From positions 1-60,531 of the IMG/VR virus record IMGVR_UViG_3300046004_001101: a stretch of 60,531 bases of DNA. The stretch is one strand, 5' to 3'. This stretch comes from a virus (taxonomy: Duplodnaviria > Caudoviricetes). The position numbers and the translations under genes are program-made. Positions 19,022 to 26,274 of the stretch are shown here, piece by piece (the stretch's first letter is position 1; the number at the start of each line of letters is the position of its first letter). The notes under the pieces are model-generated. The model made no database searches. It was given only the letters and a program-made list of their open reading frames with translations, and was not told where the DNA came from.

Positions 19022-20863
19022 TTAATTTTCATAAGTAGCTTCCTTTAGTTCTAAATCATCAGCAAACTCAACTTTAACTACGTTTAGATATTTGCCATTC
19101 TGTTTCACCTGTACTCTTTCAGGTGTAGCTAATTGTGACACAACTACTAATGCGTCGTCAATACTTTTTGGAACATCGCCAATAATTCTTGATTTCCACC
19201 AGTTGTAAGCCATACCCCTAGCACGTTCACCTTCACCATGTTCAATTCCGATGTATTCATGCACGGTGGTGTAACCACACATATAGCTGACTTTTAATGT
19301 GTCTGGTTTACCCATTTTACCTTTATTTTTACCATAACTAACGTGAGTTACGTCTAACCATTCGTTGTTGAAGGTGTGGTTGATGATTTCGGTTCTTGGT
19401 TTGGTTGCTACAATATCAAGCATACTAGCTTTTTCAGTTAGTTTCGTGTTGAAAATAAATTCACCACCACAACATTCACAAAACTTAGCTGATGGATGGT
19501 GAATTGTGTTGCATAACTCAGTTACATTATGAATATCACATTTATCATGATAATGATACATAGGGTACGGTTTACCATTGATATAATCGACAGTTCGTTT
19601 AGTAATATCTTCTGAGTTACATCCGCATAAAAAGTATTTACAGGTCTTAACAGGAGCTTCACCTCCACCGCCAGAACCTTTCTTTTTCGGCTTGATAATA
19701 TCGTTGATTGCACCACAACGGGCGGTATTTCCTGCGAAATCAGCCACAAGTCCACCTCTAGCTTTAACTCCTTGTGAAATAGCGTATGCTCGTTGTTCTT
19801 TGGTATCTAAAGGTAATCCTTCTTTCGGTGCAATACGCAAAATTCTCCCGATTACTTGAACATGACGAGCTGGCGATGCTGTTGGTAATAATACAACTAA
19901 AAAATCAATCTGCGGAATATCAACACCTGTAGTTAAAATAAGATTATTCACGCAAGCAGTATATTTACCTGCTTTAAAATCGCCTATCCGTTGTGTACGT
20001 TCTTGGTCTGTCATTTTTGAGTGAACAAATGTACTAGATATATTGAATTCTACATTCAACATATTAGATATGTGTTCAACGTGTTCAATAGAACTCCCAA
20101 ATACTAACCAACAGTTTCTATCAAACCCCATTTCAACTGCTTCTGTTAATGCAGCCCTCGTTATTTCTTCTTTATCAATCGCTATTTGTAATTCTTTTTG
20201 GTTGAAATCACCTTTTGTCATTTTAACATTACTTACATCTAATTTGGTTTTGGTTTGCTTAGACGTGATTTTAGATAGATAATTTTCATTAAAAAACCAG
20301 TTGTACGATTTAAAATCAGTCATATCGACAACAAACTCATCAAAAATATGACCTTCTGTTAAACAACCGCCGCCCATACGATATGGGCTTGCTGAATACC
20401 CAACCACTTGTAAATTTTCATTAGCTTCTTTTAGATTATTCAATAACTTTCTATATTGGGTATCTTCATCGTGCGATACACAATGAACTTCATCAATCAA
20501 TATAAAATCAATTCTTCCAAATAATTCATGTTTATTTGCAACAGAACCAATAGACCCTATTGTAATTTGACCGATTTCTTTACGTCTTAACGATGAACAA
20601 TACACACCTACTGGGGCAGTTCGCCATAATCGCAATAATGCTTGTTCGTCATTCGCTACCAATTCCATACTGTGTGTTAAAACAAGAACTTTAGTTCTAG
20701 GATTAGCAAATAACAATCGTCGTATTGTTTCAGCTATCGCGTACGTTTTTCCACTTGCGGTTGGCATACCAACAAGACCGTTCTTTTTAGGATTTTCTGG
20801 TAGCCATTTAATTGTTTTATCAGCCGCTATTAACTGATGTGGTCGTAATTTAATTTCAGACAT
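19022..20863 (-). CDS. SF2 (DExH, RadD/YejH-like) helicase
   Basis: LRPHQ, PTASGKT, DEVH, SAS, TGVDIP, QVIGR.LR, C-terminal Cys cluster; start MSEIK after AAGGA. Confidence 0.92.
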   Translation of the reverse strand: MSEIKLRPHQLIAADKTIKWLPENPKKNGLVGMPTASGKTYAIAETIRRLLFANPRTKVLVLTHSMELVANDEQALLRLWRTAPVGVYCSSLRRKEIGQITIGSIGSVANKHELFGRIDFILIDEVHCVSHDEDTQYRKLLNNLKEANENLQVVGYSASPYRMGGGCLTEGHIFDEFVVDMTDFKSYNWFFNENYLSKITSKQTKTKLDVSNVKMTKGDFNQKELQIAIDKEEITRAALTEAVEMGFDRNCWLVFGSSIEHVEHISNMLNVEFNISSTFVHSKMTDQERTQRIGDFKAGKYTACVNNLILTTGVDIPQIDFLVVLLPTASPARHVQVIGRILRIAPKEGLPLDTKEQRAYAISQGVKARGGLVADFAGNTARCGAINDIIKPKKKGSGGGGEAPVKTCKYFLCGCNSEDITKRTVDYINGKPYPMYHYHDKCDIHNVTELCNTIHHPSAKFCECCGGEFIFNTKLTEKASMLDIVATKPRTEIINHTFNNEWLDVTHVSYGKNKGKMGKPDTLKVSYMCGYTTVHEYIGIEHGEGERARGMAYNWWKSRIIGDVPKSIDDALVVVSQLATPERVQVKQNGKYLNVVKVEFADDLELKEATYEN

Positions 20864-20885
20864 TTTAAATTCCTTTAGTGTAAGG

Positions 20886-20960
20886 TTTAAGTGACGATTA
20901 GTAAAAGTGGTCAGAAGTTCACTACGCTTCATTTCAGGAGCTACCATAGACCACTTTTGA
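20886..20960 (-). ncRNA. Candidate structured leader RNA, copy E (core GGUAGCUCCUGAAA)
   Basis: Stem aaaagtggtc/gaccactttt encloses the core and a gaag/cttc hairpin whose loop (agtga) matches downstream tcact; same layout at 25278-25340. Confidence 0.6.
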
Positions 20961-20969
20961 TATTCTGCA

Positions 20970-21704
20970 TTATTGAATCTTATCAATCAAGCTAATAAAA
21001 TGGTCATACCCATTAACTAAATCAGCTTTAATAAAACTAATCAAACTATTTTCAATTCTAGTTCTATACGCTAATTCTTCGTGTGTAGCTGTATTCCAAT
21101 GTCCACCAGTAGGGTTAACTTTCTTTCTGATTAAATTAGCTACGTTCATGTAAATTGCAGTATAAGCGCGTTGACCTGATTGTTTTAAACATACTTCATC
21201 AATTGCAATGTTTAATGCTTTATATGAATCTCCAGAATCATCTCGCCATTGTAATAACCCACCTTCAACAACTCGTTTATAGATTTGAACTTTAAACGAT
21301 GCGTCTAATTTACCAGCCGCATCTAACAAGATATATAGATGTGTCCAAGTACCACCGTAACGACCTTCTTTAGTTTTAATCAGTGGTGATTTGATTGTTT
21401 TTACAACACCTTTCTTCTTTTTAGATTTAATTTCTAACTCCGTGGAATCCACGGAGTTAGAATCTTCAATACTTTCAATATCTTGAATATCTCTAATACC
21501 AAACTCAATTTCACAAGCTCTTACGAGTTCTTCTGTTTCTGGTGAACGTAGGTAGTTTGATAGGTCTAATTCAGGCAAACCTTTCTTGGCTCGCATCGCA
21601 TTTCCAATAGTCCAAAGTTTTGTAATACTACCCATCATATCTTTGTGACCAATATCTAAATTGTAATCGTCGAATTGTAATTGCATAATCTGATTTGTTT
21701 TCAT
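20970..21704 (-). CDS. KilA-N domain protein
   Basis: YLRSPET.EL, KTKEGRYGGTW.H, LQWRDDSGDSYK. Confidence 0.8.
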   Translation of the reverse strand: MKTNQIMQLQFDDYNLDIGHKDMMGSITKLWTIGNAMRAKKGLPELDLSNYLRSPETEELVRACEIEFGIRDIQDIESIEDSNSVDSTELEIKSKKKKGVVKTIKSPLIKTKEGRYGGTWTHLYILLDAAGKLDASFKVQIYKRVVEGGLLQWRDDSGDSYKALNIAIDEVCLKQSGQRAYTAIYMNVANLIRKKVNPTGGHWNTATHEELAYRTRIENSLISFIKADLVNGYDHFISLIDKIQ

Positions 21705-21735
21705 GTTTATTTACCAACTGTAGTTAAAAAATGCA

Positions 21736-21764
21736 ATTCTAACATAAGTTAGTTTAAATGTCAA
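21736..21764 (-). promoter_or_regulatory. Sigma70 promoter
   Basis: TTGACA-17-TAGAAT. Confidence 0.75.
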
Positions 21765-21789
21765 GGGATACTTTACCGTGTTTATTTTG

Positions 21790-21817
21790 TACCGTTGCAC
21801 TTTTTAGTGCAACGGTA
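21790..21817. terminator. Hairpin, likely terminator
   Basis: taccgttgcact-tttt-agtgcaacggta. Confidence 0.55.
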
Positions 21818-21824
21818 ATTTAAA

Positions 21825-22082
21825 TCACATCATATAAACTTCAATGTCAGCATCTTTTATCGCTTCCGTTACGTCTTCAATGTGTTCTTTAGCGATATGA
21901 ACAACATGACAACTATACTCACACCATTCAAAATAAATTTGCAATGCTCGCAATGCTTGTTTACCTGACATTACAGGTTTTACACCTTTACTGGTCATTA
22001 AACACATATAGGTTACATGAGTAGGTGTTTGCCATAAATTATAGCTTTCGCCGTTAATTCTTAAACATAAATTCATACTCAT
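21825..22082 (-). CDS. Hypothetical protein (paralog of 22350-22661)
   Basis: MSMNL...QT.T..T..CLM...GVK....GK.A.RAL..Y shared. Confidence 0.75.
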   Translation of the reverse strand: MSMNLCLRINGESYNLWQTPTHVTYMCLMTSKGVKPVMSGKQALRALQIYFEWCEYSCHVVHIAKEHIEDVTEAIKDADIEVYMM

Positions 22083-22083
22083 C

Positions 22084-22362
22084 TTAAAATCTCTCCATAA
22101 TAATTTTACAACCACACAACATACAAAATTGATTCATTTTTAATTGACTTTCAAACCATATCTTATCTTCCAACCAATATCCATTTCGATAAGGTAATAA
22201 TAAGTAACCTTTCACACCATCATCGTGAGCATACTCATACCAAATACCTGTGTCGAACTCAATGTTTTCTCTAAGATATTGCCAAACTAAAACATCATCA
22301 CTAAGTTCTTTAGATTGTTGAGCGACTTTTAAATTCTTACCTTTAATAGTCATTGCATCCAA
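22084..22362 (-). CDS. Hypothetical protein
   Basis: Co-oriented ORF in coupled chain. Confidence 0.6.
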   Translation of the reverse strand: MDAMTIKGKNLKVAQQSKELSDDVLVWQYLRENIEFDTGIWYEYAHDDGVKGYLLLPYRNGYWLEDKIWFESQLKMNQFCMLCGCKIIMERF

Positions 22363-22661
22363 GCCTCAAAAATATAACCTTCTTCAATACCTTCTTTCAA
22401 AATGGATTCCATTTCCTTAATGTGTTCCATATCGTAAGCTAAATGACCATCAGGGTCTTTACCGCCTACTCTATTGCACGCATTCTGATGATACATTCTT
22501 TGAAATGCAATATAACATCTTAACGCTCTAACTGCCTTCTTACCAGTGACACTTCCTTTAACACCACTTGCTGACATTAAACATATTTCAGTTTCATAGG
22601 TAGAAGTTTGTCTGATTGGGAGTTCGCAATTGTTCACACATACATATAAATTCATACTCAT
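22350..22661 (-). CDS. Hypothetical protein (paralog of 21825-22082)
   Basis: Shared MSMNL motif set. Confidence 0.75.
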   Translation of the reverse strand: MSMNLYVCVNNCELPIRQTSTYETEICLMSASGVKGSVTGKKAVRALRCYIAFQRMYHQNACNRVGGKDPDGHLAYDMEHIKEMESILKEGIEEGYIFEAWMQ

Positions 22662-23303
22662 TGTAATTCTCTCATTTTCAATTTACGTTCTTCCCATCTG
22701 CGTTCTTTTTCCATATAACCATCGGCATTAGCTTCAGCAGCGGTTAACAAAGCAACTACATCTTGCTTACCGTTCATATTATCTGTTCTCGCGTTCCATT
22801 CTTTACCATCAAACTCTACCACAAAATACGAATCGTCATAGAAATAGTTACCAATAAACGACGATATATGTTCAGCCATTGAACATGAGAACTCGTTAAA
22901 CGAGAACTCATAGTAATCACTTATCTGCCAACATAATCGATGCAAAGATGATGTAAGGTATTGTGTACGTCTATCATCACCATCATAAATCATAATCTCT
23001 ACGAATCGTTCAATATCTGGATTATCACAATATGAAATAATGTCAGCTAAATCACGTTCTAAACGTAGAAGTTCAATCTTTCTAATCTTCTTAATCATTT
23101 TTAATGGTGTCATTTCATCTTCCTCTAGCAAACACATTATCGTACACAATTTCTAACTTACTACGTCTATTCTGTACCGCTTCTTTAGTCGTAACTCGAT
23201 ACGTCATAAATAATAACTCTTTTGTGTACCATTTTTGAATGTAAAACTTACCGTTTATGATACCTGATTTCATGATAAATCTCTCCATTCTAATTTTGAA
23301 CAA
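22658..23303 (-). CDS. Two hypothetical ORFs (22658-23149, 23115-23303)
   Basis: Co-oriented, overlapping ORFs. Confidence 0.55.
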
Positions 23304-24211
23304 CCAAACATTGCTTTGTCAGCAGGAATTATACACATAAATTTACTACAACACCATTTACCAGCTTCATTTTCATGTGGTGAAGGATAGCTGAATTTAC
23401 ATTGACGACAGTTCCAATCTCTTTGTGATTCATCGCCATCATGACATAAAGTCGAGAAACTACAATACTTACAGTCAAAGTATTCTTTATTTTTGTGTAG
23501 ACGTTTCGGTGGTTTATCAGCCCACACAATAGATTCAGCTCGTTCTAAATAGTGTTGTGCTACATAAGTATTAGCTTCAATAATCTCCATGTGAAGCTCA
23601 TCAGTATTCTTGTTCACGCTGATATACATAGCGTATTTAAGTCCCATTAGCTCAAGATACATTTGCATTTGAATGTAATGTTCGATTTTTGCAGATTGAA
23701 CTCCTGATTTTTTTAACTTTTTAAAACTTGAATCATTGTGAGTTTTCATTTCAAGCAAGCATTTTTCACCTTTAGGTACGTCTGGAACACCTATCGCAAT
23801 ACCATCACCTGAGCCTTTAAAATGCCCATTTACGGCGGATACACCGAATTGACGACCAGTTTCAGGGTCATTTTGTAATACTTCAACGCCTATTGAATCT
23901 AATAATGCACAAAAACGTGCTTCATACAACTGACCAGTTGAAAATAGCAAATTTAATCTACCATCGAACTTTGTATTGCAAGTCCATCGGCTATTATAAT
24001 AAATTTCTCTATCACAAGGTTTTCCAATCACAGAGCAACCTAGATGATTTCTGTGCGATTTTAGACTGCTTGGTTTGTACGCATCTTCGATGATATTGAA
24101 CCACTTTTTAAGTAATCCTCTATATTCACTACCTTGACTGGCGCGCATTGTAGCTTCAATCATTTCTAATGTAATTGAAGCAGGTTTAAATTGTTCCATC
24201 TTGTTCTCCAT
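23270..24211 (-). CDS. Cas4-like/RecB-family PD-(D/E)xK exonuclease
   Basis: C...C N-terminus, GSGDG, LLEMKT, QMQMY, C-terminal CKYC..C cluster. Confidence 0.85.
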   Translation of the reverse strand: MENKMEQFKPASITLEMIEATMRASQGSEYRGLLKKWFNIIEDAYKPSSLKSHRNHLGCSVIGKPCDREIYYNSRWTCNTKFDGRLNLLFSTGQLYEARFCALLDSIGVEVLQNDPETGRQFGVSAVNGHFKGSGDGIAIGVPDVPKGEKCLLEMKTHNDSSFKKLKKSGVQSAKIEHYIQMQMYLELMGLKYAMYISVNKNTDELHMEIIEANTYVAQHYLERAESIVWADKPPKRLHKNKEYFDCKYCSFSTLCHDGDESQRDWNCRQCKFSYPSPHENEAGKWCCSKFMCIIPADKAMFGCSKLEWRDLS

Positions 24212-25245
24212 TTTTAATGTTTTCTAAGTAAAATTTATAAGCTGGTGATTCCTGATAATTTTCAAAGTGCGATTCTATTAAATCAGGTAGAATTTTATTA
24301 TATTTAACGATGTTATCATGAGCCGATAAGGGTCTGAAATTAGTATAATGTGATAATGCAAGTACAGATTCTTTATCGAAGGCTAGGCTTATTGGAATAA
24401 TATGGTCTAAATGATTATCTCTATTTAATACAAATTCCGAATTTTGATTCAAAATGTAATCTTTAAACTCAAAAATACTACAACCAAGAACTTCTATGCT
24501 ATGAATATCTTTAACTAAAGTAGTATTCTTAAATGCGGCAACCACTGCTTTTCTAAATCTAGTTTTAAGAATTGCAATATCATCCTTAGTAGAATGATAT
24601 TTTGCTATTTTACATCTCCTTCTTCTTACATATTCGCTAATGTTTTTATTTTTATGGTAGTTACTATCACATTCCTTGCAACAAGCTGCAAAACCACTTT
24701 TATGTTTTTTATTTATTCTAAAATAATCGGTTGATAATACTTTTTTTACATTGAGAACATTTCTTTTCTAAAATAGAGCTATTTTTATCGTAATTTACAG
24801 TTACTTGATATTCCTTTATACAAAATACACAAGTTCCATTAAAACCATCTCGCATAGCTTTATTAAAATGAAAATAATAGACGTACCACTCATTGTTACA
24901 TACTCTGCATATCTTAGTTATTAAAGACGTATCAGGCTTATTATTTTTCAGTTTATTATAGATACTTTCACAAAGTTTACATACGTTATTATAACCAGTC
25001 TTACATTTTCGGTCTAAAGAAAATAAGTTTACTTCTTTTTCTTCTTTGCATTTAGTACATTTTATAAATAATATATTTTTATCAGGTTCATTTCGTAGTG
25101 ATTTTGTTGTTTTTGATATGCACTCTTTACATTGTGTTTTTAATTTATCTAAAGTTGATTTTTGCTTACTAAACATCTCAGCAGGTTTATGTTCGTGACA
25201 TTTTGAACATTCTTTCAAACCAGTTTCTTCGTTTAATCTTGGCAT
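24186..25245 (-). pseudogene. Zn-ribbon HNH endonuclease split by frameshift at an A7 run (24741-24747)
   Basis: Removing one A joins CSQCKK to VLSTDYF...CKEC...HLDHIIP..SHYTNFRPL; architecture matches intact 34818-35753. Confidence 0.8.
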
Positions 25246-25277
25246 TTTATGATTCCTTTTATCAATTATGGAAGTGT

Positions 25278-25374
25278 GATTATCAATTAAAACGTAGCAA
25301 CAGGTGATAAGTCTGCTTTCGGGAGCTACCCTAGCTACATTGATAATTATTTCATAAAATTACGGTTTTGTCAA
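25278..25374 (-). ncRNA. Promoter plus candidate structured leader RNA, copy D (core GGGUAGCUCCCGAAA)
   Basis: TTGACA-17-AATAAT; stem atgtagc/gctacgt, inner agcag/ctgtt with loop ttatca matching downstream tgataa. Confidence 0.65.
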
Positions 25375-25395
25375 CCAAATCAAGTTTATCTTTAT

Positions 25396-26274
25396 TCATT
25401 TCAAACCTCCAAAAATATGTGCAATTACATCTACAGTCCACGAATTACCTAACATCTTGTATCGTTGACTGTTACTAACTGATTTAGTATAGGTATCTGG
25501 AAATGTTTGCAATCTTTCACATTCTATAGGTGTTAGTTTTCTGAAATACATTATTGAATCTTCAGGTTCACATACAACTAAACCTAATTTACTTCTAGTA
25601 ACCATTGATTTTGCGTTCTCTTTATAAATCGTAGCTAATATAGTGTTTGATTTATTTTTAAAAACTAATTGTCTACGATTCTTTTCAAAATACGATTTTA
25701 AGTTACCACCTTTAAAGTAGTTTGCATCAATACGGAATGATTTATCTCTATCAACAAAACCAGTTTCAAGTTCATCTTTAAGTGATATACCTCTATCATC
25801 AGGTTGTGTTACATTAGGAATGTTAGTCCAATATAGTCGTTTTCTGTTCTGTGCAGATACTAATGCTGAGTTAATCATAATAGGTTGCACACCTAACGCT
25901 TCACTAATCACATCTTGATATTCCTGTTTCATTACTACATTTTCAAGTAAGAAATACTTTGGCTTAACATGACGTAAGATATTCACAAACTCAAAGAATA
26001 ATGCACTTCTAGGGTCATTGAAGTTTAATTGCTTACCCGCAAAACTAAAACCTTGACATGGACTGCCACCGATAACTAAATCAATTTCTGGTAAATCCCA
26101 TTCTTCCCATTTAGTCACGTCACCTAATCTAATAATTTTAGGGTAATTTTCTTGTGATACTTGAATCGCATACTTATCAACTTCAGACGCATAATAGTCA
26201 GTCACTTCAATACCAGCTCGTTCTAATGCAACCATGCCTGCTGAAATACCATCAAATAAACTTAAAATATTCAT
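25396..26274 (-). CDS. C5-cytosine DNA methyltransferase
   Basis: LSLFDG, GSPCQGFS, LENV, Q.RKR, ERLQTFP, LGNSW. Confidence 0.93.
   Translation of the reverse strand: MNILSLFDGISAGMVALERAGIEVTDYYASEVDKYAIQVSQENYPKIIRLGDVTKWEEWDLPEIDLVIGGSPCQGFSFAGKQLNFNDPRSALFFEFVNILRHVKPKYFLLENVVMKQEYQDVISEALGVQPIMINSALVSAQNRKRLYWTNIPNVTQPDDRGISLKDELETGFVDRDKSFRIDANYFKGGNLKSYFEKNRRQLVFKNKSNTILATIYKENAKSMVTRSKLGLVVCEPEDSIMYFRKLTPIECERLQTFPDTYTKSVSNSQRYKMLGNSWTVDVIAHIFGGLK

Follow-up and report, generated by a model that had tools for sequence, protein, structure and literature searches.

Two probable int-alpA-type RNA leaders in a viral genome and a model for how they may gate translation

Introduction

The IMG/VR virus record IMGVR_UViG_3300046004_001101 carries two copies, D and E, of a short conserved RNA element in front of genes on its minus strand. 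We analysed the whole record, 60,531 bases with an estimated completeness of 89% and a G+C content of 34.8%, and refer to it as the window. Copy D precedes an HNH/endonuclease VII-like gene and copy E an SF2 helicase gene. The locus raises two questions: to which RNA family do these leaders belong, and what do they do for the gene behind them? A preliminary description of this DNA had proposed a pseudoknotted three-way-junction RNA that it could not assign to a named family.

Our analysis suggests that D and E are divergent, AT-rich members of int-alpA (Rfam RF02996) and that they are probably cis-acting 5'-leaders through which translation of the gene behind them is gated. The RNA family itself is catalogued. 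New AT-rich members and a functional model are added here, which together provide a new functional lead. int-alpA is an orphan family that is functionally unstudied, and the model can be tested by mutation.

Two leaders with a common fold

The leaders are located at 25342..25243 (D) and 20958..20861 (E), both on the minus strand. Their core, TA(G/T)GGTAGCTCC(C/T)GAAA, occurs exactly twice in the window, at 25333..25317 and 20948..20932, both minus. A third copy was found in the window neither with up to 3 mismatches nor by a full covariance-model scan. D and E share a predicted fold composed of the outer stem P1, UA, hairpin P2 (GGUAGCUCC), GAAA, hairpin P3, a U and the closing strand P1'. The elements of copy D are listed below; MFE stands for minimum free energy, ORF for open reading frame, and R1 is a covariance model described in the next section.

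25346..25374, minus: promoter-like site, TTGACA (25374..25369), 17 nt, AATAAT (25351..25346), with TG before the -10 hexamer
25291..25341, minus: three-way junction, present in the MFE fold; 47.9 bits with R1, 24.5 bits with RF02996
25341..25334 with 25298..25291, minus: P1, outer-stem strands AAUGUAGC/GCUACGUU
25333..25332 and 25320..25317, minus: junction letters UA and GAA(A)
25331..25329 with 25323..25321, minus: P2, GGG/CCC, loop UAGCU
25317..25313 with 25303..25299, minus: P3, with loop L3 ACUUAUCAC at 25312..25304
25280..25286, minus: site 1 (putative decoy), U-UGAUAA, complementary to UUAUCA in L3
25243..25273, minus: putative expression platform, with hairpin P4 formed by UUCC (25273..25270) and GGAA (25256..25253)
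25264..25259, minus: site 2, UGAUAA, in the P4 loop; the Shine-Dalgarno sequence (SD) AAGGAA overlaps the P4 3' arm
25245..25243, minus: AUG opening the HNH/endonuclease VII-like ORF

The equivalent elements of copy E are as follows.

20903..20958, minus: three-way junction, 34.7 bits with R1
20958..20949 with 20912..20903, minus: P1, outer-stem strands AAAAGUGGUC/GACCACUUUU
20948..20947 and 20935..20932, minus: junction letters UA and GAAA
20945..20944 with 20938..20937, minus: P2, GG/CC, flanked by a U-U mismatch, loop UAGCU
20930..20927 with 20917..20914, minus: P3, GAAG/CUUC, with loop L3 CGUAGUGAA at 20926..20918
20890..20894, minus: site 1 (putative decoy), UCACU, complementary to AGUGA in L3
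20861..20885, minus: putative expression platform, with P4 formed by CCUU (20885..20882) and AAGG (20875..20872)
20880..20876, minus: site 2, CACUA, in the P4 loop; the SD is AAAGGAA
20863..20861, minus: AUG opening the SF2 helicase gene

The shared core with different flanks that pair in the same way, as first described, is present in the sequence at the outer stems, the inner hairpins and the loop complementarity. The inner hairpin of D, AGCAG/CUGUU, includes one G.U pair. The junction letters UA and GAAA are kept in both copies, and in the R1 alignment the J3/1 strand is UU for D and CU for E. The RNAfold MFE structure of D consists of the three-way junction and the downstream hairpin P4. 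In that of E, P1 is retained and the interior is refolded.

The P3 loop is complementary to the tail behind P1' over 6 nt in D and 5 nt in E. In D, UUAUCA in L3 has two complements, UGAUAA at 25285..25280 and again at 25264..25259. The second adjoins AAGGAA, as the preliminary description had noticed for the ribosome-binding site (RBS). A second site in E had been overlooked: UAGUG in L3 is complementary to CACUA at 20880..20876, directly 5' of AAAGGAA. In both copies site 2 is located in the loop of the 4-bp hairpin P4, and the SD forms the P4 3' arm.

Relationship to the int-alpA family

A search of Rfam at gathering score returned nothing in the window. Below that score, D aligns with the full RF02996 model (positions 1-71) at 24.5 bits, with an E-value of 0.07 in 5 kb. 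The cut-off of 35.8 bits is the curated gathering cut-off of the family, an operational value and no biological feature. Copy E gave no match to RF02996 at E-values up to 10, even in a 131-nt search. The family is nevertheless reached through intermediates. The exact 17-nt core is found in at least 118 IMG/VR stretches, nearly all of which show equal architecture around it, and in at least 120 stretches of bacterial genomes, a scan of 596 Gb in which chance 17-mer matches are expected. Among 38 same-core loci tested, 26 pass the RF02996 cut-off: 10 of 18 from IMG/VR, 14 of 18 from bacterial genomes and both named phages, Enterobacter phage Tyrion (44.0 bits) and the P22-like Salmonella phage BIS08P22 (38.5 bits). 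The two phages are identified here as cultured carriers.

The covariance model R1, for which 55 IMG/VR loci and no window rows were used, retrieves both copies. D scores 47.9 bits (E-value 1e-12) and E scores 34.7 bits (2e-8); the next match in the window scores 11.9 bits. R1 searches covered 99 IMG/VR loci (L003-L101) and 80 bacterial-genome loci, with 19 further IMG/VR loci (L102-L120) and 40 genome loci beyond L202 outside this set. R1 matches 98 of the 99 IMG/VR loci; the remaining one, L068, is a chance pattern match. Of the 80 genome loci, 52 reach at least 34 bits and 25 go unmatched at E-values up to 0.01. Because 26 of the 38 same-core loci pass the cut-off and R1 links these to D and E, the two window copies are best placed as sub-threshold members of RF02996 rather than as an unassigned RNA. 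The early statement that the element could not be assigned to a named family is thus superseded, although a direct Rfam search recovers it in neither copy at gathering score. The curated Rfam model misses AT-rich members.

RF02996 has the same elements, in the same order and size: a P1 of about 8 bp is followed by UA, a P2 whose loop has 5 nt, GAAA(A), a P3 whose loop has 9 nt, CU and P1'. In the RF02996 consensus the loop CCuU and the 3' tail AgGG match each other as well. D has this architecture over model positions 1-71 and in its MFE fold; E fits it in R1, but its P2 has 2 pairs and the fold is not the MFE. The window copies differ from the family as catalogued. They are AT-rich, and they are located in front of HNH endonuclease and helicase genes, not between integrase and alpA. 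The RF02996 model stops after site 1, so that P4, site 2, the SD and the start codon lie outside it, and it is typed as a gene, not as a leader. Our analysis indicates that the family reaches about 45 nt past the Rfam model and includes the decoy site, the RBS hairpin and the start codon. Conservation of these elements argues for a cis translational leader over a small RNA (sRNA) gene.

Strong matches are found under diverse record titles. The isolates among them include Bradyrhizobium, Rhizobium, Pasteurella, Kangiella, Acidithiobacillus, Variovorax and Candidatus Uabimicrobium. Metagenome-assembled genomes with strong matches include some labelled Nitrospinaceae, Terriglobia/Acidobacteriota, Desulfobacterales, Thermodesulfovibrionales, Planctomycetota, Spirochaetales, Chitinispirillaceae, Bacillota and Mycobacteriaceae, labels that are to be read with caution, as phage-like contigs bin unreliably. 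None of 12 loci that we take from their titles to be Bacteroidota matched R1.

Covariation across the family

Structure statistics were calculated from 110 aligned R1 matches (96 distinct rows). Paired cells make up 89.9%, compared to 61.2% in shuffled rows and 32-55% when the partners are slid. Both partners vary in each of the nine P1 pairs and each of the four P3 pairs. At the outer P2 pair, 81 rows have G-C, 10 have G.U and 1 has A-U; the U-U of copy E is the sole exception. J3/1 is CU in 78 and UU in 15 of the 110. Since the structure covaries family-wide, the leaders are beyond chance. The earlier proposal of a three-way-junction, pseudoknotted RNA leader in front of genes is therefore backed by covariation in about 150 relatives, and covarying homologues, on which it had been made to depend, do exist.

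Ten loci carry a second copy that was found by structure only and has a different P2 sequence. UA and GAAA are kept in nine of these ten, and (C/U)U persists at the junction.

In six loci (L014, L046, L078, L069, L100 and L005) the second copy lies some 0.5 kb upstream of the main one, which itself precedes a replication gene. Behind the second copy, whose P2 differs, comes a small gene, HNH-type or unknown. The arrangement resembles the insertion of an endonuclease cassette, complete with a leader, ahead of a leader-bearing gene.

The P2 region is often self-complementary. The word is AGCU in the window (25328..25324 and 20943..20939), ACGU in the Rfam consensus, and GAUC or UCGCGA in second copies (L021:616-672; L005:476-531). 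In this small sample such words could reflect loop-loop dimerisation or mere descent from a DNA palindrome.

The P3 loop matches two downstream sites

Complementarity between L3 and the downstream tail was scored at 5 nt or more, at 2-16 nt after P1' for site 1 and 15-36 nt for site 2. From the 110 viral matches, rows were dropped if they lacked the P1' strand, had less than 90 nt downstream, were duplicates or were poor matches (L045:973, L017:406, L028:1847, L052:1119). In the swap control, each loop was set against the sequence downstream of P1' in unrelated loci.

Viral loci, 69 distinct L3: site 1 in 64, site 2 in 50, both in 47; swap control 5.2%, 12.6% and 0.8%
Bacterial genomes, 51 distinct L3: site 1 in 44, site 2 in 32, both in 30; swap control 6.7%, 13.9% and 1.65%

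The viral and bacterial sets share one loop sequence only. Site 1 starts at a median of 7 nt and site 2 at a median of 22 nt after P1', and their commonest spacing is 14-15 nt. Site 1 is complementary to the 3' part of L3, with 2-3 free nt on the 5' side in 48/67 and 0-1 free nt on the 3' side in 58/67. Judged from the sequences, this register is that expected of an H-type pseudoknot. Pairing of L3 with site 1 and with site 2 would be mutually exclusive, because both use the same loop bases. P4 starts 0-2 nt past site 1 in 30/39, and site 2 is enclosed in the P4 loop in 39/63 MFE folds. Site 2 most often ends 7-11 nt ahead of the start codon, which is the SD position.

Position, promoters and downstream genes

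A start codon follows on the same strand at a median of 34 nt after P1' (interquartile range 29.5-36, n=89). Among 88 non-redundant copies, 48 have a -10 hexamer with at most one mismatch in the 0-15 nt before P1, compared to 6% of 5000 random positions. In the window, D is located directly behind TTGACA-17-AATAAT, as had been described; with 11/12 matches, this promoter-like site and one other share the top sigma-70-like score in 20700-25600. The site assigned earlier to E, TTGATT-17-CAGAAT, is present but falls under the scan threshold. A strong promoter-like TTGACA-17-TAGAAT, equal in quality to that of D, is found at 21764..21736, upstream of the KilA-N gene, and copy E may be read through from it.

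A Pfam search of 85 distinct proteins downstream of viral copies found HNH_3 (12), DUF1376 (10), HNH (7), HNH_5 (5), HTH_36 (4), NUMOD4 (3), AP2 (3), GIY-YIG (2), and lambda P, helicase and Rha once each, families that may overlap on one protein. PHROGs matches of the viral downstream proteins are mostly HNH endonucleases and primosomal or replication-initiation proteins. Behind 49 bacterial-genome copies almost no recognisable protein family was found. The naming context of int-alpA is not seen in the window, where D is located between C5 methylase and HNH-like genes and E between KilA-N and helicase genes. Phage_AlpA is absent from the 25 commonest Pfam families behind the 85 viral copies and from the 13 families behind the 49 genome copies.

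When the HNH and helicase proteins of the window were compared by BLASTP to the 83 remaining downstream proteins, there was no match at 1e-3. The leader thus does not travel with one gene lineage. It is a generic leader of mobile-element genes and is tied to no single function: one 17-nt core fronts very different phage and prophage genes, often free-standing HNH endonuclease and replication genes.

The copy in phage BIS08P22 (L121:2513-2575) follows a KilA-N domain gene, like window copy E. It precedes a gene for a small protein between lysis and terminase genes, and its P2 loop is UAGUU instead of UAGCU.

Proposed mechanism and alternatives

In the model that we favour, the three-way junction would hold out the P3 loop L3, which would serve as an anti-RBS element, with site 1 as its decoy. 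The 3' arm of the predicted P4 carries the SD and ends at the start codon, and site 2 is located at or beside the SD position. P4 and the distribution of L3 between its pairings with site 1 and site 2 would jointly set the frequency of ribosome loading. The conserved junction may be the part on which a universal input acts, such as a ligand, a ribosome, a nuclease or folding kinetics.

Several observations weigh against a cis-acting leader of this kind. All relatives were fetched by the exact 17-mer, so conservation of the core and P2 is by construction, and 10 second copies sample other P2 sequences. Both window copies score below the Rfam cut-off and E is unreported by it; Rfam also types int-alpA as 'Gene; sRNA'. 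The folding energy of D is ordinary for its composition (z of -0.15 over 103 nt and -1.57 over 53 nt). In E, P2 contains the U-U mismatch and the family fold lies 4.3 kcal/mol above the MFE (-16.1 vs -20.4 kcal/mol), and this copy may be decaying. A good -10 hexamer is missing in 40/88 copies, and P4 is not recovered in 24/63 folds. Beside the pseudoknot helices, G.U and A.C count 11 vs 19 and 15 vs 18, so that repeats at the DNA level remain compatible with the data.

A broader proposal is tentative, and we think it somewhat improbable as a whole. It takes int-alpA for a universal, self-contained translational switch, spread by phages and integrative elements through many bacterial phyla, and not an sRNA gene. 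The invariant junction would sense a conserved cellular input (ligand, ribosome or nuclease) and move the anti-RBS loop between decoy and RBS, and three covarying words would re-address individual copies to their own genes. A junction cleaved at the U-rich linker could also silence the gene in trans, through mRNAs of its own family.

More specific roles can be considered for the same architecture. A true riboswitch, in which the junction and the L3:site 1 pseudoknot are the aptamer for a small molecule or ion and P4 with site 2 is the expression platform, is a doubtful alternative. Its aptamer junction would comprise UA, GAAA, YU and the closing G-C pairs. UA and GAAA persist in 9/10 second copies that were not selected by the 17-mer, J3/1 is CU or UU in 93/110 and 45/57, and one core appears under record titles from many phyla, as for a universal signal. 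A pseudoknotted aptamer followed by an SD hairpin also resembles known translational riboswitches. However, the downstream genes are non-metabolic and share no function (HNH, DUF1376, helicase, HTH; mostly unknown in genomes), the pseudoknot letters are hypervariable, and the context yields no ligand candidate. A trans-acting sRNA, which we regard as unlikely, would end or be cut after P1', and the P3 loop, then free, would pair with targets that might include site 2 in mRNAs of its own family. The Rfam type would fit such a molecule. UUUU is found within 8 nt after P1' in 14/88 copies, compared to 3.5% of random positions, and directly after P1' in both D and E; as site 1 would mask L3 in the full-length RNA, cleavage in the U-rich linker would unmask it. 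Yet 74/88 copies are without this U-tract and a terminator scan of 20700-25600 finds none. The tightly spaced start codon on the same strand and the location of both complementary sites in cis also favour a leader.

Two further explanations assign the conservation elsewhere. If the words in L3, site 1 and site 2 were operators for a phage-specific DNA-binding protein, pairing of the RNA would be incidental. A 5-7-bp word present once inverted and twice in direct orientation, at a spacing of about 14-15 bp, would suit operators, and the word differs between phages like operator specificity; at the helix flanks there is no excess of G.U over A.C, counts that are uninformative. We find this explanation very unlikely, as a covarying RNA hairpin always holds the inverted copy in its loop and another hairpin loop, at the ribosome-binding position, usually holds the second direct copy, neither of which an operator needs, the pairing register fits H-type pseudoknot geometry and no shared gene for a DNA-binding protein accompanies the element. 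Least probable of all, in our view, is a ribozyme or processing signal, where the junction self-cleaves or is cut by a universal nuclease (e.g. RNase P) to alter mRNA stability or translation. In its favour are the small size of the three-way junction, in which GAAA follows one helix, a core that is very highly conserved across hosts and the frequency of the element in mobile elements, but no Rfam ribozyme family matches the element and ARAGORN finds no tRNA-like gene.

Two particular identities were tried and rejected. In the hammerhead core, CUGAUGA joins stems I and II, GAAA joins stems II and III, and the cleavage site is an unpaired H. In our element the CUGAUGA strand is absent and only UA joins P1 to P2, and P3 is followed by U and then a paired G. 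A tRNA-like reading was set aside on the ARAGORN result.

Comparison with known systems

The int-alpA motif reportedly originates from work by Weinberg and colleagues published in NAR in 2017 (45:10811). The main text of Weinberg et al. 2017 (PMC5737381), considered without its supplements, does not contain 'alpA'. In the literature searched, int-alpA appears only among Rfam matches in E. coli genomes and as a gene order, and the accession RF02996 is not mentioned.

The proposed leader resembles several known systems in part. In IncI-alpha/IncB repZ/repA (Rfam PK-repZ and PK-repBA), a pseudoknot controls translation of a replication gene. As in our element, a hairpin loop pairs with a stretch beside the RBS, and the RBS itself is in a hairpin. 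Different from our element, the repZ pseudoknot is an activator that works only when a leader peptide is translated and that an antisense RNA blocks, and it is not known to involve a three-way junction or decoy. No sequence similarity between the repZ/repA pseudoknots and the element was found. The preQ1-II and SAM-II riboswitches are also compact pseudoknots with a 3' strand at or beside the SD. They differ in having known metabolites, matching metabolic genes and conserved pseudoknot letters, and no known decoy. putL and putR of HK022 are likewise two copies per phage, structured, promoter-proximal and cis-acting. However, put RNAs are two stem-loops that act on RNA polymerase against termination and have no known link to the RBS; no similarity to the element in sequence or fold was found.

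Homing endonuclease genes of the T4 type offer a functional parallel. According to Edgell, Gibb and Belfort 2010 (PMC2988022), the RBS of I-TevI/II/III, segB and mobE is hidden in an RNA hairpin, and these hairpins are gene-specific and bypassed by a late promoter inside the structure. Genes with HNH_3, HNH, HNH_5, NUMOD4 and GIY-YIG domains are common behind our element as well. In contrast to the T4 hairpins as described there, int-alpA is a conserved junction module located downstream of the promoter, always within the predicted transcript. As a compact module re-addressed by three short words, it could serve as a portable part for expression control.

Gene neighbourhood and minor observations

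The window sequence is contained in lake-water metagenome runs. The minus strand around the leaders is a block of replication and DNA-metabolism genes.

25396-26274, minus: C5 cytosine methylase, precedes leader D
24186-25245, minus: HNH/endonuclease VII-like gene behind copy D, two overlapping frames, phrog_1035 matches
23270-24211, minus: Cas4-type exonuclease, after the HNH gene and followed by further genes and then KilA-N
20970-21704, minus: KilA-N protein gene, precedes leader E
19022..20863, minus: SF2 (ResIII/DEAD/Helicase_C) DNA helicase behind copy E, followed by ThyX

The first HNH ORF matches the N-terminal part of phrog_1035 and the second its C-terminal part. The frames, 24718..25245 (stop to stop 24718..25359) and 24186..24767, are offset by one base. 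The base at 24741 is missing in contigs of runs X2 and X4, and frame arithmetic then puts the two HNH parts into the same frame. An assembly error or a polymorphism between strains accounts for the split.

Two contigs of run X5 differ from the window at leader D. In one of low depth (2; 46 letters on its shorter side), 24194 and 25391 are separated by 5 other letters, so that promoter, leader D and HNH gene are jointly skipped. In a high-depth contig, only 25171-25339 (the leader and the start of the HNH gene) is window-like, and both flanks differ. These contigs give a weak hint that leader D and the endonuclease may move as one cassette.

Megablast of 20600-25600 against GenBank phages gave no match and the relatives found with the helicase protein are all below 40% identity; there is therefore no close named phage. 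A helicase-based search for related loci in IMG/VR found no relatives.

Other RNAs were seen on contigs that carry the element. One (L056:4306-4533) also holds a C4 antisense RNA (83 bits) and isrK (74 bits), and another (L003:4621-4676) holds GP20-b (51 bits). In several bacterial-genome loci tRNA genes are found about 1.4 kb from the element, e.g. at L163:1973-2046 and L127:3492-3565, which fits integrative elements at tRNA genes, the naming context of the family.

Weak Rfam matches in the window, GP20-a at 21403-21491 (23.1 bits vs a cut-off of 47.2), DUF805b and snR63, were judged to be chance, as were snoRNA and miRNA matches on copy E. A perfect 12-bp inverted repeat, UACCGUUGCACU ... 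AGUGCAACGGUA, is located at 21790-21817, just upstream of the promoter-like site at 21764..21736. It surfaced only as meaningless miRNA matches on both strands, and it could be a terminator or an operator.

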